Under the pieces are notes generated by a model. It saw only the letters and a list, made by a program, of their open reading frames with translations. It had not been told where the DNA came from and made no database searches. From a virus: a stretch of 64,000 nt of DNA. Position numbers and translations under genes: made by a program. Every line of letters begins with the position of its first letter. Position 1 is the stretch's first letter. Positions 1-57,598 of the stretch are shown here, piece by piece. Location of the stretch: IMG/VR virus record IMGVR_UViG_3300045988_158973, positions 32,001-96,000 of that record; one strand, given 5' to 3'.

Positions 1-1119
1 ATCATCGGTGAACTCGCGGTACATTTCCGCATCCGGTTTCAGAGTTCGCGGCGCAACCTTTCTTTGCTGGCGTTGCAACTCTACCTCGTACTGTCCTCTG
101 ATGCGATCAAGGTCTTTGAAACGAGCCTCGATGATAGCACGCATCTTCGGTTTAGAGGCCAATTTACCAGCGTCGAAAAACGCCAACACCTCGTCTTTGC
201 GTGCCTTTAAGGCGTCAATTTGGTTGATAAAATCCCGCGGCGTAAGGTTAGCTACAATCTGTGGGTTGTAGTGAACCATGCCGTCCCAGTCGATTTGACT
301 GTTAAAAGGCTTATTGGCGCCTTGTGCTCGGTAGTCGAACGTACCGCCGTTATCCACGCGATAGACTTTGCCGGCGGCGTCAACCAAGCAGTTGTCATTC
401 TGGTAGATATCCCAGTTGGCCAAAAAGGCATCAACGGCGAAGCCTTTGGCCATAGCGTCATAGTCCTTGGCCTGCGGCTCACTCATACCGCGCATGTACG
501 GCGAAATAAGCGTCAAATCGGTTCCGTCGTCGTACATTTCATATTCTGGCGTGTCGAGCCCCAAGAGGTCATAAACCTGCGCGGCGTAGTATTCTGCAGC
601 AACGTGACCGCGATTAGTGTTTTTAGAACTCTTGACGACAAACTCACGCCCTTTAGAGTCCTTCATGAGTTTGGCTCCAGTACTACCGCCGAGGTCCTGC
701 ACATAGGTGAGGTCTGAAGGATCGGCAGGGAACATCTCGTTCAACTGCTTCTCTTCCTGAGCCAGCATGGCTTTAGAACGAAAGGCTCCTTTTCCAATAG
801 GTTGGCCGTTGGCGGTCTTGTAAACTCGCCAGTCGTACGTCGTCTTGGCGTTAGGAGTCAGCGTCCAAATGTACACCACGCCATTCACGACCTTGGTCTG
901 GCCAGGCATGATGGCTTTGGCTATCTCGGGGTCTTGATCGATACCGTGGATGTGGTCATACACCGATTTGGCGACGTACAGGTTGTACGAATAGTCGTCA
1001 GCAAAGTCTTCAGACCGCGCCTTATACGCTTCACACGCCTTCTCCAGTACGGCATCAGATATCTCGCCCTCAGCGTTACGGAGGGCGAAGACATCGAGTG
1101 CTTTTCTGAGTTCATCCAT
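1..1119 (-). CDS. Partial CDS (C-terminal part beyond left edge): atypical kinase-like protein (PI3K/PI4K-like catalytic loop)
   Basis: Absent from the ORF track because no stop lies inside the window. My translation from ATG 1119..1117 stays open for all 373 codons to position 1 (MDELRKALDVFALRNAEGEISD...). Kinase-like motifs: Gly-rich LGGSTGAKLMK, Lys in REFVVKSS, Glu in VAAEYYAAQ, catalytic-loop-like FLANWDIYQNDNCLV, DFG-like YRVDNGGTF. Confidence 0.55.
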   Translation of the reverse strand, partial: MDELRKALDVFALRNAEGEISDAVLEKACEAYKARSEDFADDYSYNLYVAKSVYDHIHGIDQDPEIAKAIMPGQTKVVNGVVYIWTLTPNAKTTYDWRVYKTANGQPIGKGAFRSKAMLAQEEKQLNEMFPADPSDLTYVQDLGGSTGAKLMKDSKGREFVVKSSKNTNRGHVAAEYYAAQVYDLLGLDTPEYEMYDDGTDLTLISPYMRGMSEPQAKDYDAMAKGFAVDAFLANWDIYQNDNCLVDAAGKVYRVDNGGTFDYRAQGANKPFNSQIDWDGMVHYNPQIVANLTPRDFINQIDALKARKDEVLAFFDAGKLASKPKMRAIIEARFKDLDRIRGQYEVELQRQQRKVAPRTLKPDAEMYREFTDD

Positions 1120-2917: not shown

Positions 2918-3727
2918 CTACACTTCTACAGCGTCAAAGTCAATATCAAACTTCTTGTACACAATACGCAACTCCGGAACGCCGTTTATGGGTTTCTTCT
3001 TTTCGTCAACACGAGCGTTAAGCGGCCAACGCTTCAAGATAATATCGTGAGCACGCTGTACACGCTCTTGACGCTTGTATACGTCTTGAAGACCGCCGCC
3101 TTGAGTGGCTTCCTTGTTCATTTTGCTCTGGAGAAGGAAACGCACGAACCGCGCATACACGATACCGAGGTACATGCACTTCAACGAATAGTCGATATCA
3201 CACTTCAACTCCAACTTTTCGTCAAAATCCAGTTCCAGCGTGCGTAAGCCTTTGAACACGATGAGGTGAGGGATGCCGCCGTATTTGAAGCGAGGGCTGA
3301 CGTCGGTGCAGTTCCAGTCAAACGCGCTCTTCCCCATGGTCCCGTACTCGAAGTCGGTTTCCATGACTTCGCGGTTGAACTCTTCGAAGAATTCAGCCAA
3401 CTCTTCAGGGGTTTTCAACGAAAGCCCGCATTTGGCTTCGCCGTCAATCGAATAGAAGAAGTTGGCGATATCGTCATCCATGACCACTACCGGGCGCCCC
3501 TCGTGCAGATAGGTGTTCTTACAGAAATTGACTACATAGCTGTAGCCACGATTCGATGCCGGTAGCACGATAAGGCGTTCACGCTCGTGACCCGCTTCGA
3601 CGTATTTCTCGACGTCTTCTTTCTCGACTACGATGTGATAGTCGACGCCGCCCTTTTTCAGCAGTTTGGTCGTGACGCATTTAGGGCGGTTCTTGGACAC
3701 GACGAAGAATTGACAATTCATACTCAA
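2918..3727 (-). CDS. GT-A-like glycosyltransferase (DxD type), paralog of 21123..21938
   Basis: 269 aa. N-terminal FFVVSKNRP strand, acidic VVVMDDDIANF. Collinear with 21123..21938 (SKNRPKCVTTKLL/TRGRVDRQKTLQRL; VVVMDDDIANF/VFFLDDNVSF; GGGLQDVY/AAGGCSVY). Architecture recalls phage DNA-base (TET/JBP-associated) glycosyltransferases, from memory only. Confidence 0.45.
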   Translation of the reverse strand: MSMNCQFFVVSKNRPKCVTTKLLKKGGVDYHIVVEKEDVEKYVEAGHERERLIVLPASNRGYSYVVNFCKNTYLHEGRPVVVMDDDIANFFYSIDGEAKCGLSLKTPEELAEFFEEFNREVMETDFEYGTMGKSAFDWNCTDVSPRFKYGGIPHLIVFKGLRTLELDFDEKLELKCDIDYSLKCMYLGIVYARFVRFLLQSKMNKEATQGGGLQDVYKRQERVQRAHDIILKRWPLNARVDEKKKPINGVPELRIVYKKFDIDFDAVEV

Positions 3728-4404: not shown

Positions 4405-5351
4405 GGCCGTTTGTAAATCTTCTCAGCGCACGGGCCGTCCTTCGATACGTCTTCAGCCATACGGCGAATTTCAGGCGTAATAGGCGGCAGCGTTTTCTTG
4501 CCCATTTTGTCAGGCAGGAATCCGACGCGGACGCTGACGTGTGTACACCCTTGACACGGCCGGAAACGGCGGTCATTGTTGTACAGCATAACGCGAGCGG
4601 CGTGAAAACGCGGATGGTTCCAAAGGTCCTCGATAGGCATATCGTGGATATTGGCGATAGGGTATTCGCCGCGGAAGTCGTCACAGCACAGACACACCTG
4701 GCCATTCCAACGCACATCCAGTTCACGGAACGGGAAGGTACAGCGCTTGTTGTTGAACGAATCGTCGAGCGGGAACGCTGCACCGCAGTGATTGGCCAGG
4801 CGACGCGTCATCTTGTTGGTATCGTCTTCGGCGATAGGCGGCAGCAGGCAGATACGACGCCCCTGCTTGGGATAGTAGTACGGAACGCCCGGTTCCAGCG
4901 TGACGACGTTGTACTTTTCAACGTCGATCTTCTTGACGAAGTTCCAGTCGCCGTTGGCTGTGTAGCAGTCAACCAGTATGTCGTTCATGCCGGCCTCGAA
5001 CAGGCGGTCGAGGTACTCGGACGTGTCAGCGGCGTGGTTCATGGCGTAGCCGTTGCTGTACATATGAAATACGGCCTTCGGTAAGTGCTTGCGGAACGTA
5101 GCCACGATGTCGATGAACGCGGGGTTAAGCGTCGGCTCGCCGTGCATAGCGAACACGAACTTACAGTTCCACCCCACGCGTGCCACCTCCGAAGCAATAC
5201 GCTCGGCGGTTTCAACGGTCATGAAATTCCACGGTTTAGTCCCTTTTTCGCGCATACCGTGAAGACCACAGAACGAACACCCCAGATTGCACCCCTCGGT
5301 CGGCTCGATCTGCATGGTAAACGGGGGGTCTTGTACGATTTTGTTTTTCAT
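4392..5351 (-). CDS. Radical SAM enzyme with SPASM/twitch-like Cys-rich C-terminal domain
   Basis: 319 aa. CNLGCSFC is a CX3CX2C cluster motif near the N-terminus, and HGEPTLNP is the SAM-binding motif. C-terminal cysteines VCLCCDD...RPCQGCTH. Confidence 0.75.
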   Translation of the reverse strand: MKNKIVQDPPFTMQIEPTEGCNLGCSFCGLHGMREKGTKPWNFMTVETAERIASEVARVGWNCKFVFAMHGEPTLNPAFIDIVATFRKHLPKAVFHMYSNGYAMNHAADTSEYLDRLFEAGMNDILVDCYTANGDWNFVKKIDVEKYNVVTLEPGVPYYYPKQGRRICLLPPIAEDDTNKMTRRLANHCGAAFPLDDSFNNKRCTFPFRELDVRWNGQVCLCCDDFRGEYPIANIHDMPIEDLWNHPRFHAARVMLYNNDRRFRPCQGCTHVSVRVGFLPDKMGKKTLPPITPEIRRMAEDVSKDGPCAEKIYKRPWEK

Positions 5352-6283
5352 TATTTGGTAACTTTAATGTTAAGTTTCACGTTCTTTAACTTTGGGTTCT
5401 TGAATTGACGCTTAACTGGCTTGGTGAAGGCGCGTGTTGCGGGGTCCCATTCGAAGCCGTCAGGAACGAAGTTGATCGTACACCGACAGTAGGGGTGCGT
5501 TGGGTCAATCGTCGGGAGCCATTCAGCTACTTTGCGTCCAATATTGTTACCGTTGGCAATAAGGTCTGCCAAGCGGAACAGTTTCGGCTTTGAGTTGAGG
5601 TCTTCAGGGTCTTCCAAGTACAATTCACGACATTTGGCACACGCGCCGGGGTAAACGTCGAAATACACCTTGGCGTCAGGGCCGTGTTGCTTGAAAATAC
5701 TTTCAGCGCGGCCTACATTGTAGGCTTCATGGAGAAGGTAATACGCAATACGCAGCCAATCACGCCCCCAGTCTTGGGTAAGGTTCCCCAGTTCGCTGGC
5801 TATATACCGCGCTCCCTTACGGAGTTGAACGGCTTGAATGGCCTTGTCTTTGATTTGCTGGCGTATTGCCGATTGCTGACGAAAGTTCGACTTGAGTACA
5901 GCGTTGCGCGTTCCGGTGACGATCCGGTTGCCGAGCGACGTGATGTCGGTATAGGCGCGGTTCTTGAGGTAGTTCAGCGCGTTTTCTTCCTGTTCAGTGA
6001 GTGGAACGAAGTTTCCCGATTTCAAGAACTGGAGAAACTGCTTGTAGTTCATCTTCTTGGCGCGTGTGTCACCGATTGCTTCAGCTAAGATTCCAAACAA
6101 AAAGGCGTGTTCGATGATACCCTTTGAGTTCTTGTACTTATCGACGTTGACGCCCGACGCTACCAAGATATCAATTTCAGACTGCGTAAGGTAGTCCAAT
6201 CCGACGTGTTTGGCAATAAAGAGATACTGCCAACGTCGGAGAATACCGACCATGTCGTCTATTTGGCGGTTGTTGAAAATCAT
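5351..6283 (-). CDS. Mu F / SPP1 gp7-like minor head (head morphogenesis) protein
   Basis: 310 aa. C-terminal CAKCRELY...IDPTHPYCRCTINFVP matches the HPNCRC signature of the MuF family. Confidence 0.7.
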   Translation of the reverse strand: MIFNNRQIDDMVGILRRWQYLFIAKHVGLDYLTQSEIDILVASGVNVDKYKNSKGIIEHAFLFGILAEAIGDTRAKKMNYKQFLQFLKSGNFVPLTEQEENALNYLKNRAYTDITSLGNRIVTGTRNAVLKSNFRQQSAIRQQIKDKAIQAVQLRKGARYIASELGNLTQDWGRDWLRIAYYLLHEAYNVGRAESIFKQHGPDAKVYFDVYPGACAKCRELYLEDPEDLNSKPKLFRLADLIANGNNIGRKVAEWLPTIDPTHPYCRCTINFVPDGFEWDPATRAFTKPVKRQFKNPKLKNVKLNIKVTK

Positions 6284-25957: not shown

Positions 25958-26626
25958 TTACTTGGCGCACTTAAATTCGAAGAACTCGTTACCGCGTCGC
26001 CGTGTCTTTTTCTCCGCAGTAGGCAACGCACCGCCCACAGCCCTCAAACGCTGTACGCAGTAGCGGAAGTACCCAGCCGTGGCTTCAACGTCGTTCATCG
26101 CTCCGTGAGCGTCCGTAAGGGTGATTCCTGCGCGTTCACACGCGGCACCCAACGTCATTTTTTCATCACCCGTCAAGCCGTACATCATTTTCGAGAGATA
26201 CATCGTGTCCAGCGTCTGGTCTTGGATGTAGGTGAACAGGCTCTGCTTTTTGGCGTAAGACGAGTAATAGAACGCCGCTTCCAACATCCCGACGTCGAAC
26301 AACACGTTGTGACCAACGCCAACCAAACGCCGCTGGTCCTTATCCTTTACGTCACCGAAGTTCTGGGTACAAAACCGTCCAAATGCCTCAATAAACGCAT
26401 TCAGTTCCATACCGCGATTCACCTCGGCCATATTCACCATCGTTTTCTCGATGGCTGTCTTCGTTATTTGGAGACCATTGTACGGCTTTATGTAGGTCTC
26501 CCAGCGGTCTACCTCTTTCAGGGTATTGAAGTCCAGCACAACGGCTGCAAATTGCGTTATGGGGTTTTCTGAGGGGTCAAGGCCTCCGGTTTCGCAGTCG
26601 AATACCAAATAGTTACTTTTCTTCAT
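25958..26626 (-). CDS. DEDDh 3'-5' exonuclease (DnaQ/epsilon-like proofreading subunit)
   Basis: 222 aa. ExoI LVFDCETGG, ExoII VGHNVLFDVGML, ExoIII HGAMNDVEAT. Confidence 0.8.
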   Translation of the reverse strand: MKKSNYLVFDCETGGLDPSENPITQFAAVVLDFNTLKEVDRWETYIKPYNGLQITKTAIEKTMVNMAEVNRGMELNAFIEAFGRFCTQNFGDVKDKDQRRLVGVGHNVLFDVGMLEAAFYYSSYAKKQSLFTYIQDQTLDTMYLSKMMYGLTGDEKMTLGAACERAGITLTDAHGAMNDVEATAGYFRYCVQRLRAVGGALPTAEKKTRRRGNEFFEFKCAK

Positions 26627-26639
26627 CTTCGTTTTTACT

Positions 26640-27300
26640 TTACAAAGAAGAGACCGCCGCGGGAGCGCTTACGCAATCGGTTTAATGCCTTCTCCGACGT
26701 GGCGGCGGACATCTTTGATCTCCCGCGGCGGTTATCCGCGTTTCTCTCTTCTAAAAGAAACACCCAAGTTAACAAGAGCAGCGACCTATTGCGGTTCCCC
26801 TTTTGCCGGCCGGGCGTCCACTGGTAGTTAACCTTGGGTGTTAATTTCGTCAGGGAGTTAACGTGTCCCTGATTCTCACACGGTCTTCGGGACGATCCTC
26901 GGAGTTTACTTCAGGTTCATCACCCTGTATCACTCCTCTTTCTGGACGACGATCCAGCGAGTGTTCATTTTGCCGTGCTGCCACTCGTCAGCGCTGGTTG
27001 AGATGGAAGGATTCGAACCTCCAACGCGAGAACCAAAATCTCGTGTGTTACCATTACACCACACCTCAAAATGAGGGATCGGACTGCGGCGTCCGTTATA
27101 CTCTATCCCTCGGTTCGAGTCTGTCTCCTCCGCTCCGGCGCTCGCTATGGAGGAAGTCTGCGTTGCTGCCTTGGAGACAATTTGGTTGACCTTTTGGCCC
27201 GTTAGAAACTACAGAACGCCAACTGGAAAAGAACTACACTAACTGCTAAACCTCATTTCGTCACTTGGCATAAGTCGGCGTATCGCTCGTTTCAGGTAGT
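26640..27300 (-). ncRNA. Candidate large structured noncoding transcript enclosing tRNA-Gln
   Basis: No minus-strand ORF of 60 aa or more across 26627..27386. Bounded by the HU terminator plus a CCAACGTTAT motif (27301..27310) and the next ATG (26626). Many GC-rich helices, including two 13-bp long-range pairings (details in findings). Confidence 0.35.
26995..27068 (-). tRNA. tRNA-Gln (anticodon UUG), CCA encoded
   Basis: Hand-folded 74 nt: acceptor TGAGGTG/CATCTCA, D-arm GTGT-AATGGTA-ACAC, anticodon arm CGAGA-TTTTGGT-TCTCG (UUG), variable CGTT, T-arm GGAGG-TTCGAAT-CCTTC, discriminator A, CCA. Confidence 0.85.
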
Positions 27301-27310
27301 ATAACGTTGG
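27301..27310 (-). promoter_or_regulatory. CCAACGTTAT motif copy (heads the ORF-free region)
   Basis: Perfect 10-mer, 12 nt downstream of the HU terminator. Confidence 0.35.
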
Positions 27311-27322
27311 CGTGTAAGTAAC

Positions 27323-27358
27323 GAAAAATCCGTCAGGGCAAACCACCTCCCCGACGGA
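27323..27358 (-). terminator. Rho-independent terminator after the HU gene
   Basis: Minus strand TCCGTCGGGG-AGGTGGTTTG-CCCTGACGGA followed by TTTTTC. Confidence 0.6.
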
Positions 27359-27386
27359 CTGCGAAAGCAAACGTTGTTAGTTTGGG

Positions 27387-27683
27387 TTATTTCTTACCCT
27401 TTTTGGCAGTTTCGCCGTACACCCTGAAGGCGTGAGCCGCGCGGAACTGAACCGTGCGATACGGTTGAGCCTCGGCGATCTGTCCGGTGATGGGATTGCG
27501 TCTTACGTGAGCCGGAACGTCCTTCAGAGCAAACTTACCTACGCCGTTGAGCGTGATGGATTCACCCTTGTCGCGGACCTCCTCGGCAAGCACGACTTCG
27601 AAGGCGCGGACCAGTGCGATGGCCTGAGCCTTGGTGATGCCGGCTTTGTTGGCCAGCACGTTGTAAAAATCTTGCGTTTTCAT
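27387..27683 (-). CDS. hup: HU/IHF-family DNA-binding protein
   Basis: Trimmed to ATG 27683 (MKTQDFYNVLANKAGITKAQAIALV...). Beta-arm VRRNPITGQIAEAQPYRTVQFRA is typical of HU. Confidence 0.8.
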   Translation of the reverse strand: MKTQDFYNVLANKAGITKAQAIALVRAFEVVLAEEVRDKGESITLNGVGKFALKDVPAHVRRNPITGQIAEAQPYRTVQFRAAHAFRVYGETAKKGKK

Positions 27684-31873: not shown

Positions 31874-32803
31874 TTATTTCTTATCGTTAAATTGTTTAAT
31901 TGCTTCTACGACCTTGGCGAACTCGTCGGCGGTAAAGTAAACACGTTTACAAATCGTGTCACCCGTGCCGTAAATCAGTTCTACATAGCGTTCGTCGTTG
32001 ACCGACGGTGCGCTAACCGTAGCGAAGGCGCCGTTGGGGTGTTCTTCGTCCGGAGTTTCTTTTACTACTACCGGATAGTGAGGATTCAATTCACAGAACA
32101 CTCCAGCGGATTCCCCAGTGAGGTGTACGACGCGGACGGAATTCGGGAACTGCTGTACGACCTGATACTCACGCTGGTTGATATTTGAATACACGCGACT
32201 GCCTACAGCCACCTCGCCGAGCGGTTGCTCGTGGTCGGTGATGAGCGTAACACCGATGGCTACTGCTGATTTGCCGGCTGACGGGAAATTGGTTCTGAAG
32301 GTGTCGAGAGCCTCATCGAGAGCTGGCTTTTCAACGGCCGCAATCGTTACACGGCCTAAATACTTACCGTTTTTGTCGGCGAACTGGAACGTGTAGAGGT
32401 TGAGTTCTTCATCCGTTTCCGGTTCTTCTGGGGTCTTGGCCCACTCCAGCCACGCTTTATTCCAAGACGAGCGGATGAACAGCATATCACCCGAGCCGTC
32501 ACCCCACCAGTCGTTGCAGTGCGATAACTGAGCGCCGTATCGATTCCGATTAGCCGGGCACAGTTTAGCGTAAATCGAGCGGAACATCGTAGCCACGACA
32601 CGACCAGCAAAGTGCTTACCCTCGCGGGCGTCGTTCGTGCAGTAGCCCCAAGCACCAACGGTTTCAATCTTGCCGTGCCCGTCGAGGAACTCGGAGTCGG
32701 TATCTCCCCAACCTCCATAGAGGAAGGTGTCTTTCAGGAGCTGGCGCTCTTCAGCGGTCAATACGCTTACGATAGTGCGGATGTTTTCGATAGAAGGTTT
32801 CAT
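31874..32803 (-). CDS. Hypothetical protein
   Basis: Trimmed to ATG 32803 (MKPSIENI), because 32804..32857 is the promoter iii leader. Confidence 0.55.
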   Translation of the reverse strand: MKPSIENIRTIVSVLTAEERQLLKDTFLYGGWGDTDSEFLDGHGKIETVGAWGYCTNDAREGKHFAGRVVATMFRSIYAKLCPANRNRYGAQLSHCNDWWGDGSGDMLFIRSSWNKAWLEWAKTPEEPETDEELNLYTFQFADKNGKYLGRVTIAAVEKPALDEALDTFRTNFPSAGKSAVAIGVTLITDHEQPLGEVAVGSRVYSNINQREYQVVQQFPNSVRVVHLTGESAGVFCELNPHYPVVVKETPDEEHPNGAFATVSAPSVNDERYVELIYGTGDTICKRVYFTADEFAKVVEAIKQFNDKK

Positions 32804-35737: not shown

Positions 35738-35751
35738 TTCGCCAAGTGTTT

Positions 35752-35865
35752 TTAGAACATCGAAACCATCAATCCGACCACAGCCAGCGTTCCGGCCATC
35801 AATCCAACGAACATCAGTACACGAGCCGTAACTTCAAGAGCGGAGATAAGATTAAAGCGTTTCAT
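35752..35865 (-). CDS. Possible 37-aa hydrophobic peptide (below track cutoff)
   Basis: My translation: MKRFNLISALEVTARVLMFVGLMAGTLAVVGLMVSMF*. First ORF after promoter iv. Confidence 0.35.
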   Translation of the reverse strand: MKRFNLISALEVTARVLMFVGLMAGTLAVVGLMVSMF

Positions 35866-35894
35866 AGTTCAAGTATTTTAGTTTCATTTTCCAA

Positions 35895-35932
35895 GAGCGA
35901 AGGTAGTGTAAATCTCCAAGAGTTCAAAGAGA
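35895..35932 (-). promoter_or_regulatory. Conserved Bacteroidota-type promoter, copy iv
   Basis: Minus strand CTCTTTGAACTCTTGGAGATTTACACTACCTTCGCTCTTGG: TTTG, 19 nt, TACCTTCG. Confidence 0.55.
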
Positions 35933-35980
35933 ATTACGAAAAATCTTCCAAGAAATGAAAACTTTTTTCGTAAACCGCCA

Positions 35981-36020
35981 ACAAAAGACCCCAGCCGACG
36001 GGGGTGGTGTCAGGCTGGGG
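35981..36020 (-). terminator. Rho-independent terminator after 36075..36623
   Basis: Minus strand CCCCAGCC-16 nt loop-GGCTGGGG followed by TCTTTTGT. Confidence 0.6.
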
Positions 36021-36074
36021 CTTACAGAAAAGAAGTGTTGTTACCGCCTCGCGGCGTCACGTGATATAACGTTG

Positions 36075-53112: not shown

Positions 53113-55158
53113 CTATTGCAGTATTTCTAACCTTGTAGATGGTGAAGACTGCACGGTTTTCTTTCCAGCGAAGTAATTCACACGCCCCGTAACAGCCACA
53201 ACGCGGTTCAGCAGCGTGGCTTCAGTTTCTGACTGGTGAAGCCAAAAATCGGACCACAACGTGACCTGTATGATAAGGTCGTTCACCTCCAACTGAAGAA
53301 CGCCATATGCGTCACCTCGCTTGGTTTGGCGCTCAAATACGTTGTTCACTCGCCCCACAATACACACTTCGTCGCCTTCGTTCTTGCGTTCGAATTCCGG
53401 CGCGGTAACATACAGTCGAACCATTCGTTTTCCGAGCCCATATTCGTTCATCATACGCTCGTAGTCTACTTCTCCGTACCCGGTTAATTCACGCTGTTTG
53501 AAGACCCACCAAGCGTTGGTATGGGCATCTGGCGTATCGTACTCTTCGGGGAGTGGTTCGCCGCGGCGGTCGAGATACTGTTTAACGATATCCAGCCGTT
53601 GGCGTGGATTGCGTATACCCTCTACGAGGTCAAACGCTCCGGCGGTTATGAGCCGCAGCACCACGGTACGATTAATACCCTTTGGTGCAGATGTTATGAA
53701 GTCTTCAAACGAAAACACTTCGCCGTGTTCTTGCTTCATAGCCTTCAAAAACGAAAGAGCACGTTCGCCAATTCCCTTCACCTTCCCCAAGGAGAAGAAT
53801 ATACGGTTCGTCGTTGGGTCACACGTGAAGGTTTCATCTGAGAAGTTGATGTCTGGTGGACGAACTTCAATGCCAGCTCCAGTCTTCTTCATTTCCACCA
53901 ACCGATACGGAATATCTGATTCTTTTGAAGCGTACTGGAGTGACGTTGTCCAAAACTCCAACGGATAATTGACCTTGAACCACTGCGACCAATACGACAT
54001 CATGGTATAGGCTACGGCATGACTCTTGTTAAATCCATAGCCTGAAAAGGCCAGCAGTTTGGACCAAACCTCATCGGCTTTTTCTTCCGTTCGCTCTTTT
54101 ATTCCCGATTCGCGCAACAAGGCTGAATACCCTTCACGGAACTTACCATGGAACGATTCGATAAGGTCCATATTTTTCTTCTTGATAGCCGTACGAAGTA
54201 TATCGGACTCTACAGGACTTAAACCTCCAACGACCACGGCTTTCATGATTTGCTCTTGGTAGGTATACAACGAGTATGTATCACGCGTGATTTCCTCCAT
54301 GCCGGGGTCGAATTTAGGCTTCTTGCGTCCGTTCTTGATTTCAACAAACGTTTCGTGTGCCTTAACATCCATAGGACCTGGACGGAACAGCGCCGTCATA
54401 GCGATCAGGTCGTCAAGCGTATGCGGCTTGGCTTCGCGGCAGTAGTTCATAAGTCCCATAGCGCCAAACTGGAATACATCCTCGCACCATCCACGCTGGA
54501 AATACCGGAACACCTCTTCGTCGCCGAACGGAATAGTGTTGACGTCAATATGCTGTTTACGGTTCTTGGCTATCAACTTTATGATCGACGAGAATTTATC
54601 CAACTGGTTAAGCCCCAGAATATCCTCTTTCAAGAAGCCTGACTTGTCGATGTACTTACCTTCCCACTCCGACACCAACGTGTCTCCCATGCGCTTTATA
54701 GGCATCCAGCTGTAAAGGTCCATAGGGTTTCCGTTTTCATCTTCCTTTGGTACGATGATAACAGCCGACGGGTGAACCGAGCCTGTCTTACATTGCGTAA
54801 GAGCGTATTTCGTCATATGTACCAACTCCGGATGATCTTGAACGAAACGGAACAATTCCCGCGACGTAGCGGCGTAATTGAACAGGTCGCCCCATGTGTA
54901 TTCGATTTGGTCGTCGATGTCCTTGGTGAGTTTATTCATCACCGCAAACGGTACGCCCATGACCTTGCCGAAGTCCTTCAGACATGTCTTCAGTTTCATG
55001 CGCGTATAGGTACCAACCGAGCACACATGATTAGCGCCATAACGTCGCGACATGTATTCTTTCACCGTATCGCGAAACGCTACAGGGAAGTCGCAATCCA
55101 CGTCCGGCATGCTGTCCTGACGGGCAATTTCAACCTTTTCTATCTTTAGAATTTTCAT
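53113..55158 (-). CDS. dnaE: DNA polymerase III alpha (DnaE-type), C-terminal fragment starting just before the catalytic aspartates
   Basis: Trimmed to ATG 55158, which overlaps the HEG stop as ATGA. SMPDVDCDFPVAFRDTVKEYMSRRYGANHVCSVGTYTRMKLKTCLKDFGKVMG aligns with E. coli [26 protein letters not shown]...ITFGTM..K..IRDVGRVLG. Confidence 0.85.
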   Translation of the reverse strand: MKILKIEKVEIARQDSMPDVDCDFPVAFRDTVKEYMSRRYGANHVCSVGTYTRMKLKTCLKDFGKVMGVPFAVMNKLTKDIDDQIEYTWGDLFNYAATSRELFRFVQDHPELVHMTKYALTQCKTGSVHPSAVIIVPKEDENGNPMDLYSWMPIKRMGDTLVSEWEGKYIDKSGFLKEDILGLNQLDKFSSIIKLIAKNRKQHIDVNTIPFGDEEVFRYFQRGWCEDVFQFGAMGLMNYCREAKPHTLDDLIAMTALFRPGPMDVKAHETFVEIKNGRKKPKFDPGMEEITRDTYSLYTYQEQIMKAVVVGGLSPVESDILRTAIKKKNMDLIESFHGKFREGYSALLRESGIKERTEEKADEVWSKLLAFSGYGFNKSHAVAYTMMSYWSQWFKVNYPLEFWTTSLQYASKESDIPYRLVEMKKTGAGIEVRPPDINFSDETFTCDPTTNRIFFSLGKVKGIGERALSFLKAMKQEHGEVFSFEDFITSAPKGINRTVVLRLITAGAFDLVEGIRNPRQRLDIVKQYLDRRGEPLPEEYDTPDAHTNAWWVFKQRELTGYGEVDYERMMNEYGLGKRMVRLYVTAPEFERKNEGDEVCIVGRVNNVFERQTKRGDAYGVLQLEVNDLIIQVTLWSDFWLHQSETEATLLNRVVAVTGRVNYFAGKKTVQSSPSTRLEILQ

Positions 55159-55907
55159 TTCTTTCTTGGTTTCATGCCATACCAAAATCCATCAGGGAGC
55201 GGAGCGCCCTTTGGGATAGTAGTGTTTATTTCGCCGTTAGTTATCCTAACTTTGCCTTGCATGGGATTCGTGTACCCGTGCTCGTATCTATCGCGTATTT
55301 TCTTACCAAAATCCCTGCGCCGTTCCTCGGGCCAACGGTTATTCCAGTTAGGGTTATTTTCACCATTATAACGACCTCTCATTTTAGCCGACAAGTTCGC
55401 TTTTTGTTCGGCTGTCCATCGGTTGCCGTAGTTTGGATTCTTTTCGCCTACATATCTGCCTTTCAAGGACTTCGAAATTCTTTCCTTGTAGTCAGTATTG
55501 TCCAAAGTAATTTGGCGTTTTTGGTGAATTCGCTTCATTAACTCTGGACGATTCTTGAACGTCTTTTTAAGCGACCTTGAAACCTTAACAGCGACCTCTG
55601 GAATCAACATCGGCGAACCGCTTCCAAACTGGTTAGCCGTACCCGGTAGGATGTTATATCCTATACCCTTTTCAGTAGAACGTAGCTTCTTGATGTAAAG
55701 CATCTCCCAAGCGTCGAGTTGTAGCTGGGTATCACACACGCGGAGCGTTTCACGTTTGAAATTCTCAGGGCCGTAATACCTAACAGCATTCGTCAAGGAT
55801 ACGCCGCTACCCAAATACCCATCAAACTCGTCTGTTTTGCAGTGGTGTTGGCCGATGTAAATCTTACCGTTGACGAGGTTCGTAGTTTTGTAAATTATAC
55901 CTTGCAT
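55155..55907 (-). CDS. GIY-YIG homing endonuclease with NUMOD3-like repeats
   Basis: 250 aa. GIIYKTTNLVNGKIYIGQ (GIY...YIG). Repeats GRYVGEKNPNYGNRW / GRYNGENNPNWNNRW. AT-rich relative to the flanks. Overlaps both DnaE fragments. Confidence 0.85.
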   Translation of the reverse strand: MQGIIYKTTNLVNGKIYIGQHHCKTDEFDGYLGSGVSLTNAVRYYGPENFKRETLRVCDTQLQLDAWEMLYIKKLRSTEKGIGYNILPGTANQFGSGSPMLIPEVAVKVSRSLKKTFKNRPELMKRIHQKRQITLDNTDYKERISKSLKGRYVGEKNPNYGNRWTAEQKANLSAKMRGRYNGENNPNWNNRWPEERRRDFGKKIRDRYEHGYTNPMQGKVRITNGEINTTIPKGAPLPDGFWYGMKPRKK

Positions 55908-57598
55908 AAAGTCCGTAATTTATCAATATCTATGTCCAGGTCTATATTTGATAAATCACAGTCTATGTCTATTTCTTTACCGTTTCGAAGAGGAATCTTG
56001 ACATTTTCAGGTAATCTAAATTTACCATATCCCTCTATTTCCAAATCCCAATACTTAGGAACGGTAACGCGCGTTTCATTCAAGAAACGTTCGAACATCA
56101 GGTGGTATTTCAGCGGGTCCACGTCCGTGATGTACAGGCAATACGCAATCAACGAACCGCACACTGAACCACGGCCCGATCCAGTCATGATACCTTGTTC
56201 GCGACACCAGTTCATGATATCCCAAAGGATCATGAAATAATCACACAACCCGTTAGGGACGATAATGGCACATTCCTTCTCCAACTCGTTTAGATAGCGA
56301 TCAAGGTCATCGACCTTACCTACCAGCCGTTCCTGAACGCCCGCTTCCAGTTTCTCAAAGAAAGCGTCTTCAACCGTAGTTTTTACAAACTCATATTTCG
56401 GAAGATGACGTATGCCGGTGGGTATCTTAAAGTCAATACTGTCCGTCAACGTCGTGGAATTGGTCATTCCATCAATTATCTTTTCGTAAAGGGGCGCGGC
56501 TCCGTCCATCCACTCTTCGTAGGCTAAAATCGTCTCTTTTGAGTTTTTGAAGTATTGCGTCGCACTTTCAGCATTTACAACCCCTGCCACCTTATTCAAC
56601 AACGACTTCAGAGGCGCTTCTTCAGCGTCCAAGTAGTACGAATCGTTGATGACCAACGGCAGCGCGTCACGGTATAGCTTCATCTTGCGGCACCGTAAGA
56701 CGTAGGTGTCCAAGTTTTCGAGGTGGTCACGGAAAAGACTTTCCGACGCATATTCGACGGTATCGATCTGGTAATATACTCGATCGAACGCTGCATGGTA
56801 TGCCGTCAGCAGGCGCTTACACCGATCTAAATCACCCTTGAAATAATTCAGTTCCGAATCCGACGGTATGACACACGCCAGTCCGTCGCCCAGTTTGTAA
56901 AGTTCTTCCGCAGGGATGAATCCTTGATAATCGACGTTGATGGCCTTATTTACCAACAACAAGTTACGCCATCCGGCGGCGTTCATGACGTATAGTTTCA
57001 GCGAGAACGTTTCCTGAATTTCCACCGCCGGGTCGTAGTTACACGCCACCGTAATGGTCTCGCCGATGATAGGTTTAACACCTTTAGCCAAGCACGCAGT
57101 CTGGAAAGCCAGCGTTCCGGCCAGCGTGTTGCGGTCACATATACCCAACGCCGTCATACGGTTGAACCGAGCCTTCGTAGCCCACTCATCGCAATTCGAA
57201 GAGCCGTTCAAGAACTCGTACTCGCTGTGGACACCGAGGTGTACAAACGGCACCAGTTCTTCAGCCGTACTCGTACCAAGGTACTTGAAGTCGCGGAATT
57301 CAGGGCGAAATACCACGGTTTTATCCAACCGCAGGTGATCCTTTTTGATGTTCGAGTAGTAGAACTTTCCACCAAACTCGAATAGGATATATTTTACAAC
57401 GCCGTCATACAAGGCGTCAAATTCGTCGGCCGTTACCGCAAACGAGAAGCGTTCGTCGATTATCTTTCCCTTATCGTCGGGGTGTAGGTACAAAAAGTCC
57501 CCCACACCTTCAATTGAAATTACGTTCAGTTCGTCGTCGCGCTTTTCTTCAATAGCCAAATAATTATCATCAGCCCAACGGCGTAGTGCGTCAGTCAT
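55895..57598 (-). CDS. dnaE: DNA polymerase III alpha (DnaE-type), N-terminal fragment (PHP domain plus first part of palm)
   Basis: 567 aa. PHP FVHLGVHSEYEFLNGSS. GSGRGSVCGSLIAYCLYITDVDPLKYHLMFERFLNETRV aligns with E. coli [39 protein letters not shown]. Followed by a 55-aa non-homologous tail. Confidence 0.85.
   Translation of the reverse strand: MTDALRRWADDNYLAIEEKRDDELNVISIEGVGDFLYLHPDDKGKIIDERFSFAVTADEFDALYDGVVKYILFEFGGKFYYSNIKKDHLRLDKTVVFRPEFRDFKYLGTSTAEELVPFVHLGVHSEYEFLNGSSNCDEWATKARFNRMTALGICDRNTLAGTLAFQTACLAKGVKPIIGETITVACNYDPAVEIQETFSLKLYVMNAAGWRNLLLVNKAINVDYQGFIPAEELYKLGDGLACVIPSDSELNYFKGDLDRCKRLLTAYHAAFDRVYYQIDTVEYASESLFRDHLENLDTYVLRCRKMKLYRDALPLVINDSYYLDAEEAPLKSLLNKVAGVVNAESATQYFKNSKETILAYEEWMDGAAPLYEKIIDGMTNSTTLTDSIDFKIPTGIRHLPKYEFVKTTVEDAFFEKLEAGVQERLVGKVDDLDRYLNELEKECAIIVPNGLCDYFMILWDIMNWCREQGIMTGSGRGSVCGSLIAYCLYITDVDPLKYHLMFERFLNETRVTVPKYWDLEIEGYGKFRLPENVKIPLRNGKEIDIDCDLSNIDLDIDIDKLRTLCKV

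Follow-up and report, generated by a model that had tools for sequence, protein, structure and literature searches.

Candidate structured RNA modules around a tRNA-Gln(UUG) gene of gut phages: a possible miniature tRNA island

Background

GOLLD and ROOL are large non-coding RNAs of phages and prophages that are encoded near tRNA islands. In GOLLD, a tRNA is sometimes embedded between the domains, and the 5' part is variable and modular while another part is strongly conserved (PMC12286853). ROOL, for which no protein partner is known (PMC12286853, PMC5737381), combines six multistem junctions with three pseudoknots in a mean length of 581 nt, and few of its nucleotides are highly conserved (PMC5737381). 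Here we analyse a gap without open reading frames (ORFs) around a tRNA-Gln gene in a 64-kb stretch of viral DNA (IMG/VR record IMGVR_UViG_3300045988_158973, positions 32,001 to 96,000; hereafter the window), which a preliminary description had presented as a single heavily base-paired unit of about 0.7 kb and as a candidate for a large phage RNA.

Smaller structured RNAs are also known from tRNA transcripts. The tRNA cluster of phage T4 encodes species 1 and 2, stable structured RNAs other than tRNAs that are co-transcribed with the tRNAs and freed by the tRNA-processing enzymes. In Escherichia coli, a tRNA transcript releases its 3' external spacer as the stable host RNA 3'ETS-leuZ, which acts in trans as a sponge of small RNAs by base pairing.

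The gap and its relatives

With modest confidence, we read the gap as a miniature phage tRNA island, in which tRNA-Gln(UUG) would be flanked by new structured non-coding RNA modules that act as RNAs themselves. As judged from the sequences of related phages, the domain L1, the small hairpin L5, a 67-nt core and the hairpin L7, all upstream of the tRNA, and motif A downstream of it are conserved and non-coding and keep their pairs through compensatory changes. The earlier proposal of a structured non-coding RNA on the tRNA strand is borne out by this conservation and covariation.

Minus-strand ORFs of at least 60 aa cover 95.6 % of the window, and the largest stretch free of them is 26627-27386 (760 nt), whose lack of such ORFs the preliminary description had noticed; all features of the window given below lie on the minus strand unless stated otherwise. 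The second and third largest such stretches are 483-920 (438 nt) and 35738-36074 (337 nt). The gap holds tRNA-Gln with anticodon UUG and an encoded CCA end (26995..27068), which was called by ARAGORN (ttg) and by Rfam (64.4 bits; gathering score, 29). Each of the three stop codons is used and 42 % of the Gln codons are CAA; the tRNA is therefore an ordinary one, and a role in TAG recoding or suppression was rejected. Minus-strand ORFs within the gap reach only 34-46 aa. On the plus strand, a 108-aa ORF (26863-27189) runs antisense across tRNA-Gln, without a Pfam match and without a conserved frame in relatives. A conserved small protein was not found: similar translations occurred only in the nucleotide-invariant stretch, in several frames and on both strands and with differing ORF ends, and none of the small ORFs of the gap had a Pfam match. 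The lengths of the hairpins differ between relatives by non-multiples of three.

A protein-guided scan with the downstream exonuclease yielded 78 loci on contigs of up to about 100 kb and longer, mostly from human-gut phages with genomes of about 100 kb; these and the loci from other searches are denoted below by L and a three-digit number. The order HU-like gene, gap, tRNA-Gln(UUG), gap, exonuclease gene was kept in about 22 loci with exonucleases of 82-97 % identity. In these, the leader measures 302-784 nt and the trailer 220-1492 nt, and the unit reaches about 1.1 kb. The leader of the window aligns with all of these close relatives at 72-89 % identity, set against only 82-88 % for the exonuclease of about 22 relatives, and the trailer only with the approximately 98 % identical L004 and L005, save one element of about 80 nt. 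In the leader alignment, blocks are found in some loci and are cleanly missing from others. Of these blocks, the window carries L1, L5, the core and L7; relatives may add the modules L2, L3 (holding motif B) and L4. Between near-identical phages, modules of about 85-400 nt are present or absent. In L008 (3088-4000; L109 is from the same contig), the core, L7 and the 5' strand of the tRNA-Gln acceptor stem have been lost through a deletion. No tRNA is called there by ARAGORN, and the Rfam match is confined to tRNA positions 6-65; the locus is a loss-of-function variant of natural origin or else an assembly artefact.

Conserved modules upstream of the tRNA

The L1 domain (27205..27293) is closed by a long-range helix of 27277-27293 with 27205-27220. 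For eight distinct relatives, RNAalifold returned a 12-bp closing helix and compensatory changes in 3 of 20 pairs of L1, with alternations between G-U, G-C and A-U; the closing helix of the window itself is weaker than those of its relatives. Many L1 pairs are G-U on the tRNA strand and A-C on the other strand. As such pairs exist on the tRNA strand only, they argue for an RNA and not for a DNA structure. This bears on the idea that the gap is a DNA-level element, i.e., a replication origin, a packaging site or a recombination site of the replication module, which may be called to mind by its site, with an HU-like gene on one side, a DnaQ-type exonuclease gene on the other and the terminase a few kb away, by its invariant block and by its palindromes. 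Near 27 kb, the cumulative GC skew does not turn; iterons and direct repeats were absent apart from three short two-copy repeats, CAGACTTCC was not enriched, and in other phages the modules travel with tRNAs and not with replication genes. A DNA element is thus very improbable.

L5 (27188..27201) is a small 4-bp hairpin with a tetraloop. Read directly from the sequences, its stem varies and yet stays paired (GGCC/GGTC, GGTC/GACC, GGTC/GGCC), and the loop is GAAA, GCAA or GUGA in relatives, AAAA in the window and GUUA in L024. Such a GNRA-type loop would be of the kind used for tertiary docking. The 67-nt core follows (27117..27183) with the helices Pa (27173-27179/27122-27128) and Pb (27160-27162/27139-27141 and 27169-27170/27137-27138). 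The core is invariant in the close relatives, except for about 97 % identity in the L024-L026 lineage, while the adjoining tRNA varies. Of 61 locus records matching a loose core pattern, many of which represent a contig that is counted twice, 49 share an identical inner stretch of 58 nt, from Pa to Pa. In the remaining 12, the differences are confined to the 3' half of a single hairpin loop, save for one record with a GGA deletion.

L7 (27073..27111) is a hairpin with a conserved 5' bulge of 9-10 nt, AGAGUAUAA, that ends 4 nt before the tRNA. It folds in all 16 sequence variants. The bulge is fixed, and the stem is exchanged (GAGGGAT/ATCCCTC, AGGGGG/CCCCCT, AAGGGG/CCCCTT, AGGGGC/GCCCCT; CGGA/UCCG versus GCGA/UCGC), with seven of ten pairs changed on both sides. 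A pairing of the bulge (AGUAUAA) with the upstream box (UUAUACU) was rejected, because a position of the box varies between C, U and G while the bulge is fixed.

A profile search revealed a diverged copy of L4, L5, core and L7 in a second phage group, represented by L110 and L122 (142-kb contig) and L149 (132-kb contig). In these loci the block of core and L7 lies directly 5' of a different tRNA, not of tRNA-Gln. The 86-nt tRNA in L110 (399-484, minus strand) and L149 (4757-4842, plus strand) has a long variable arm and the anticodon loop CUACUAA, and is called Ser(ACU) by ARAGORN, which is unusual. The covariance model R2, built without the window, scored the window (27071-27183) with 115 bits and the outgroups of the L110/L149 group with 79-87 bits. 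In the alignment of core and L7, 98.4 % of the cells are paired, compared to 42-61 % with the partners slid, and 8 of 22 pairs are changed on both sides, a value that was reached by none of 500 shuffles. Pa is kept in L110 and L149 through C-to-U changes opposite G, and one exchange of G:C to A:U supports the inner helix Pb. Core and L7 always abut the 5' end of a tRNA, with L7 ending 4-7 nt before it in every case. Searches of IMG/VR with an exact 17-mer and 19-mer of the core returned the same clade and L110/L149 only; two further matches were chance hits in coding DNA. In the loci L128, L133, L143 and L148, from a lineage without the 67-nt core, a hairpin located 2-40 nt 5' of tRNA-Gln (CAAGGA-[CCGAGUUAA]-GCAAC-UGA-GUUGC-A-UCCUUG) has an architecture like that of L7 and a similar bulge.

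Motif A downstream of the tRNA

Motif A (26760..26841) is a hairpin with an outer stem around a central part at 26783-26818, in which GCCC, a loop with GGCCGGCA and GGG are followed by the 3' bulge A-N4-CAAUAG. Among 50,697 phage records of INPHARED it gave the sole match of the gap outside the tRNA: 70 nt with 87 % identity in the crAss-like phage cr111_1, again in an ORF-free gap and 45 nt after tRNA-Gln(UUG). As cr111_1 is an uncultured phage, the cultured phages of INPHARED contain no match to any module. The same gap of cr111_1 (L001, MT774387) ends with an unannotated tRNA-like element (3504-3577) with a T-arm and a CCA-type end, whose only match was to Rfam tRNA-Sec with 24 bits, below the threshold.

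In every close relative of the window, motif A occurs in a second sequence version, and pattern scans of IMG/VR added L110 and L112. A pattern scan of metagenomes gave 35 matches, of which 27, mostly from human-gut assemblies, were genuine: 26 lie 16-154 nt after tRNA-Gln(UUG) and one 395 nt after tRNA-Leu(CAA). The eight chance matches had no tRNA nearby. At least four phage groups carry motif A, which lies 16-190 nt behind tRNA-Gln(UUG) in almost all cases. One genome each of 185,579 bacterial and archaeal species contained one chance match and no genuine motif A, and the R1 model described below had no match in the distant exonuclease relatives.

The consensus comprises P1, (Y)GGCA, P3 (GYUC/GARC), G, P4 (CCC/GGG), a loop with GYCGGCA and the 11-nt 3' bulge A-N4-CAAUAG. 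In 20 distinct sequences from several lineages, 94.6 % of the cells are paired, compared to 33-55 % with slid partners, and half of the 12 pairs are changed on both sides. The covariation score was 0.443, against 0.171 in shuffles, and none of 500 shuffles reached it. The covariance model R1, built without the window, found the window at 26785-26816 with 30 bits (E = 4e-5). Motif A is followed by UUUCUUUU in the window, by U8 in L110 and by another tRNA within about 10 nt in L128; a scan of the minus strand for intrinsic terminators called none. Two genes past tRNA-Gln and motif A, the tRNA island of L128 also contains a tmRNA called by ARAGORN (5859-6205, tag ANNIFGKLSNKVAALALGQRAQVAMAA).

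The conserved bulge beside tRNA-Gln(UUG) displays CAA, the matching codon (CAG in L024), and so recalls stem I and the specifier loop of T-boxes. A T-box-like reading of CAAUAG against the UUG anticodon was not supported: the match is 3 nt long only, 18 tRNA/bulge combinations showed no covariation, one lineage has AAA, and the motif A region has no match to the T-box model of Rfam. A kissing interaction of CAAUAG in motif A with a CUAUUG loop upstream of the tRNA would be available only to the lineage of L112, L120, L127 and L139 and was rejected. Resemblances of motif A to SRP RNA, boxA or a tRNA remnant were seen by eye only, without model support.

Separate modules and not one fold

The pairings listed in the preliminary description are present in the window: 13 of 13 bp between 26720-26732 and 26653-26665, 13 bp with one bulge between 26827-26840 and 26761-26773, 7 of 7 bp between 27105-27111 and 27073-27079, 5 of 5 bp between 27091-27095 and 27080-27084, and 7 of 7 bp between TGTCTCC (27173-27179) and GGAGACA (27122-27128). 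The hairpins at 26851-26871, 26901-26936, 26942-26957 and 26958-26987 fold as listed. The picture of a heavily paired unit was confirmed by comparison for L1, the small hairpin, core with L7, and motif A, but not for the hairpins of the spacer or for the terminal hairpin with its 13 bp. Compared to shuffled sequences, the folding energy of the whole unit has a z-score of -2.27, and its parts of -1.34 (L1), -2.19 (core and L7), -1.44 (motif A) and -3.57 (terminal hairpin). The lineage-specific spacer (26842..26994, 153 nt, four hairpins) is homologous only in the approximately 98 % identical L004 and L005, and with z = -0.92 (26845-26994) it is not above chance.

Of the single structured unit of about 0.7 kb, the structured modules stood and the one integrated fold did not. 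The modules have closing helices of their own and occur in differing sets and orders, and we therefore read them as beads on a string rather than as one 0.7-kb fold. Motif B, for instance, lies 5' of the tRNA in L006-L009 and L114 and 3' of it in the cr111-like L002 and L003, and L2 is 5' of the tRNA in the clade of the window, while an L2-like sequence follows motif A in L112, L114 and L120. Other recurrent helix-closed modules in the tRNA islands of gut phages are M (GUUGUAGUAGUU...CUCCUACAAC), B (GAGGGGCU...GAAGUCGANGCNGAUAGACAAUAAAG) and L2 (...CAGUAUCUCG...CUGGCACCAAUA), seen in L110 (about 620-770, minus strand), L149 (about 4450-4560), L114 (about 2420-2500), the leaders of L006-L009 and the trailers of L002/L003; none of the three has a match in Rfam.

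Small selfish or mobile elements that gather in a permissive tRNA region would show such a distribution, with clean presence or absence of whole modules between near-identical phages and the same modules in different orders in unrelated phages, motif A being 87 % identical without other DNA similarity. The phage of the window also carries a homing-endonuclease-like insertion elsewhere. The module junctions that were inspected have neither terminal repeats nor target duplications, however, core with L7 and motif A are fixed relative to the tRNA ends, and their pairing is under selection. We regard a selfish origin as most doubtful.

Processing spacers or RNAs in their own right

Under the reading as a miniature tRNA island, the gap would be expressed as one minus-strand transcription unit, in which each module is closed by its own helix. 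Transcription would start at a conserved box after the HU terminator or enter by read-through of this terminator. By standard tRNA processing, a cut of RNase P 4 nt after L7 would free a leader RNA of about 220 nt, and processing of the tRNA 3' end would free a trailer with motif A as its stable end. The long terminal hairpin would separate the unit from the exonuclease mRNA, and the freed modules would act as RNAs in their own right. The release by tRNA processing, which the preliminary description had considered, agrees with the anatomy, as the tRNA is separated by 4 nt from L7 and, in other phages, by about 5 nt from the start of motif A.

The same anatomy also suits an ordinary pre-tRNA, with hairpins that are signals for processing, stability or termination and flanks that have no function after processing. 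The constant position of L7 close to the tRNA is in line with such a precursor, as are the close spacing of motif A in the array phages, often with a U-rich run behind it (U8 in L110, UUUCUUUU in the window), and the optional nature of several modules among close relatives. Conservation of the 67-nt core, including its unpaired positions, is stricter than that of the tRNA itself, and the bulges AGAGUAUAA and A-N4-CAAUAG as well as leaders of up to 784 nt exceed the needs of RNase P or of a terminator. Bacterial tRNA genes, finally, lack motif A, as the single chance match in the 185,579 species genomes indicates. Plain precursor spacers are in our view unlikely, though to be taken seriously. 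An independent RNA function is favoured, because unpaired core positions are nearly invariant, asymmetric bulges are conserved and a GNRA-type loop is present. These near-invariant unpaired positions and bulges suggest tertiary or protein contacts rather than simple spacers. The role is most likely related to tRNA during infection, with the modules serving as scaffold or partner either of the tRNA itself or of a factor that acts on it. On a more speculative view, to which we give a low probability, the nearly invariant and probably pseudoknotted core with L7 could be a cis-acting catalytic element or one that guides RNase P, and motif A could bind tRNA or an enzyme, e.g., as a decoy against tRNA-targeting defence nucleases or as a sensor of tRNA-Gln.

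Several observations weigh against a function as independent RNAs. The folding energies are only modestly better than those of shuffles; the meaning of the unit must therefore come from the comparison with relatives. In the core, the covariation is small, with one compensatory pair and three G-U substitutions, and the sequence is too invariant to prove the fold. The alignment of core and L7 (A7) was produced by fitting to the model structure and contains many close kin, so that the pair counts given above overstate the number of independent events. The modules L2-L4 are dispensable among near-identical phages, and the module order, which differs between phages, argues against one integrated large RNA and fits neutral or selfish spacer elements too. 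About a third of the unit, spacer and terminal hairpin, is lineage-specific and without comparative support. Transcript ends, promoter and cleavage sites are all inferred.

Boundaries and genomic setting

The gap is flanked by an HU-like DNA-binding gene (PHROG 379), whose ORF ends at 27387, and a DnaQ-type exonuclease gene (PHROG 192) with its ATG at 26626. The upstream boundary of the unit is the terminator-type hairpin of the HU-like gene with a T5 tract (27324..27359), which the preliminary description had recognized and which is kept in all close relatives. In L018 (about 2382-2412; also in L101), the loop of this terminator reads CAAACCACCTC, exactly reverse-complementary to GAGGTGGTTTG of all other relatives; the hairpin loop is thus inverted between the inverted-repeat arms. 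Downstream of the terminator lies the box CAACGTTATACTACCTGAAACGAG (27286..27309), which is unique in the window, kept in all close relatives and contains a -10-like hexamer TATACT at 27298-27303. Within the box, variation is limited to the fifth base of the hexamer (TATA[C/G/T]T), its least constrained position, and L1 begins 5 nt downstream of the hexamer; for these reasons the sequence of the box suggests a promoter, and possibly the RNA 5' end. A promoter scan with consensus sequences did not call it.

At the other end, U/A-G-rich flanks and a long terminal hairpin (26643..26759) with a 13-bp GC core (26720-26732/26653-26665) end 27 nt before the exonuclease ATG. The flanks AGAAGAGAG and CUCUUCUU lengthen the stem to about 25 bp, and the U-rich tail is predicted to pair with the upstream purine run. 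The sequence of the hairpin is not conserved; relatives have a different GC hairpin and a U-tract at the same place. It may act as a terminator or as an RNase III-type processing site. A cis-regulatory leader, i.e., an attenuator or riboswitch-like control of the read-through into the exonuclease and the replication genes, would also account for a strong hairpin at this site. There is no space for a separate promoter before the exonuclease ATG, which keeps this explanation in play; in addition, the order of HU-like gene, unit and exonuclease gene is kept in all of the roughly 22 close relatives, and the invariant core resembles a ligand- or protein-binding pocket. Core with L7 and motif A, however, occur in pure tRNA arrays as well, where the next gene is another tRNA, the terminal hairpin is not conserved in sequence, and no riboswitch family was matched. 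Control of the exonuclease is therefore quite improbable as the role of the unit.

The window is a segment of a tailed phage with genes for a portal protein, a large terminase, a helicase, an SbcC-like protein and a DNA polymerase. Megablast revealed no close cultured relative, and the exonuclease is at most about 31 % identical to that of any phage in INPHARED. Two separate ORFs (55895-57598 and 53113-55185, minus strand) encode the split DNA polymerase. Between them, a 250-aa ORF (55155-55907) has sub-threshold Pfam matches to GIY-YIG/SegE and NUMOD3 and looks like a homing-endonuclease insertion; Rfam detected no group I intron there.

Comparison with described RNA families

Searches with Rfam 15 (cmscan) at gathering thresholds gave only the tRNA in the window, and at E<=10 on 26400-27600 the tRNA and a chance-level match inside the HU gene. 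The 16 related loci and one tRNA-array relative likewise gave only tRNA, as did, at E<=1, L006 with its long leader and L110/L149. GOLLD and ROOL, which the preliminary description had offered as candidate classes, had no covariance-model match at any threshold used, neither in the window (E<=10) nor in relatives with the 784-nt leader. A divergent member of either family would be expected in the same niche, in a phage, adjoining or enclosing a tRNA and with variable 5' modules (PMC12286853, PMC5737381). The unit is indeed phage-encoded, as portal, terminase and DNA polymerase genes indicate, and encloses tRNA-Gln. GOLLD is usually longer than 800 nt, in contrast to about 690 nt for the unit; in the window the strongly conserved block is 5' of the tRNA, and separate helix-closed modules change their order between phages. 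ROOL appears to differ in its multistem junctions and differs in its low sequence conservation: the supported helices of the unit form separate, simple hairpin-type modules, among which no multistem junctions were detected, and a 58-nt stretch is almost invariant. With no model match even in the module-richest relatives (gathering score or E<=1), membership in either family has a next to negligible probability. GOLLD assembles into a 14-mer cage; on the speculative view mentioned above, the modules with their tethered tRNA could likewise form a higher-order RNA particle.

We know of no sequence relation between the modules and species 1 and 2 of T4. The two differ in host range, and the modules, from human-gut phages, are tied to the ends of particular tRNAs. 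With 3'ETS-leuZ, motif A would share the mode of release, as proposed by analogy; 3'ETS-leuZ is a host RNA with base-pairing targets, whereas motif A is a phage element without a known target or seed. The modules are undescribed in Rfam 15 and in the literature searched, although a 2023 catalogue of 10,006 unnamed structured-RNA candidates from IMG/VR may include them.

Conclusions

GOLLD and ROOL, the large RNAs found beside phage tRNA islands, were recently shown to form RNA-only cages. To this niche, the locus described here contributes RNA families that are unrelated to them and come from phages that are abundant in the human gut. Two points of attack set it apart from GOLLD and ROOL: an almost invariant core of small size, fixed to the 5' end of a tRNA, and a small hairpin tied specifically to tRNA-Gln(UUG). 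Core and motif A are both small enough for direct biochemistry. That gut phages carry in their tRNA islands an undescribed toolkit of non-tRNA RNA genes acting directly on tRNA biology is a far-reaching view, and we consider it distinctly unlikely at present. If the modules do act on tRNAs or on host factors that target tRNAs, phage tRNA islands would be linked to a concrete mechanism. If they are mere processing spacers, they would still be conserved RNA elements that the annotation pipelines for phages leave blank.

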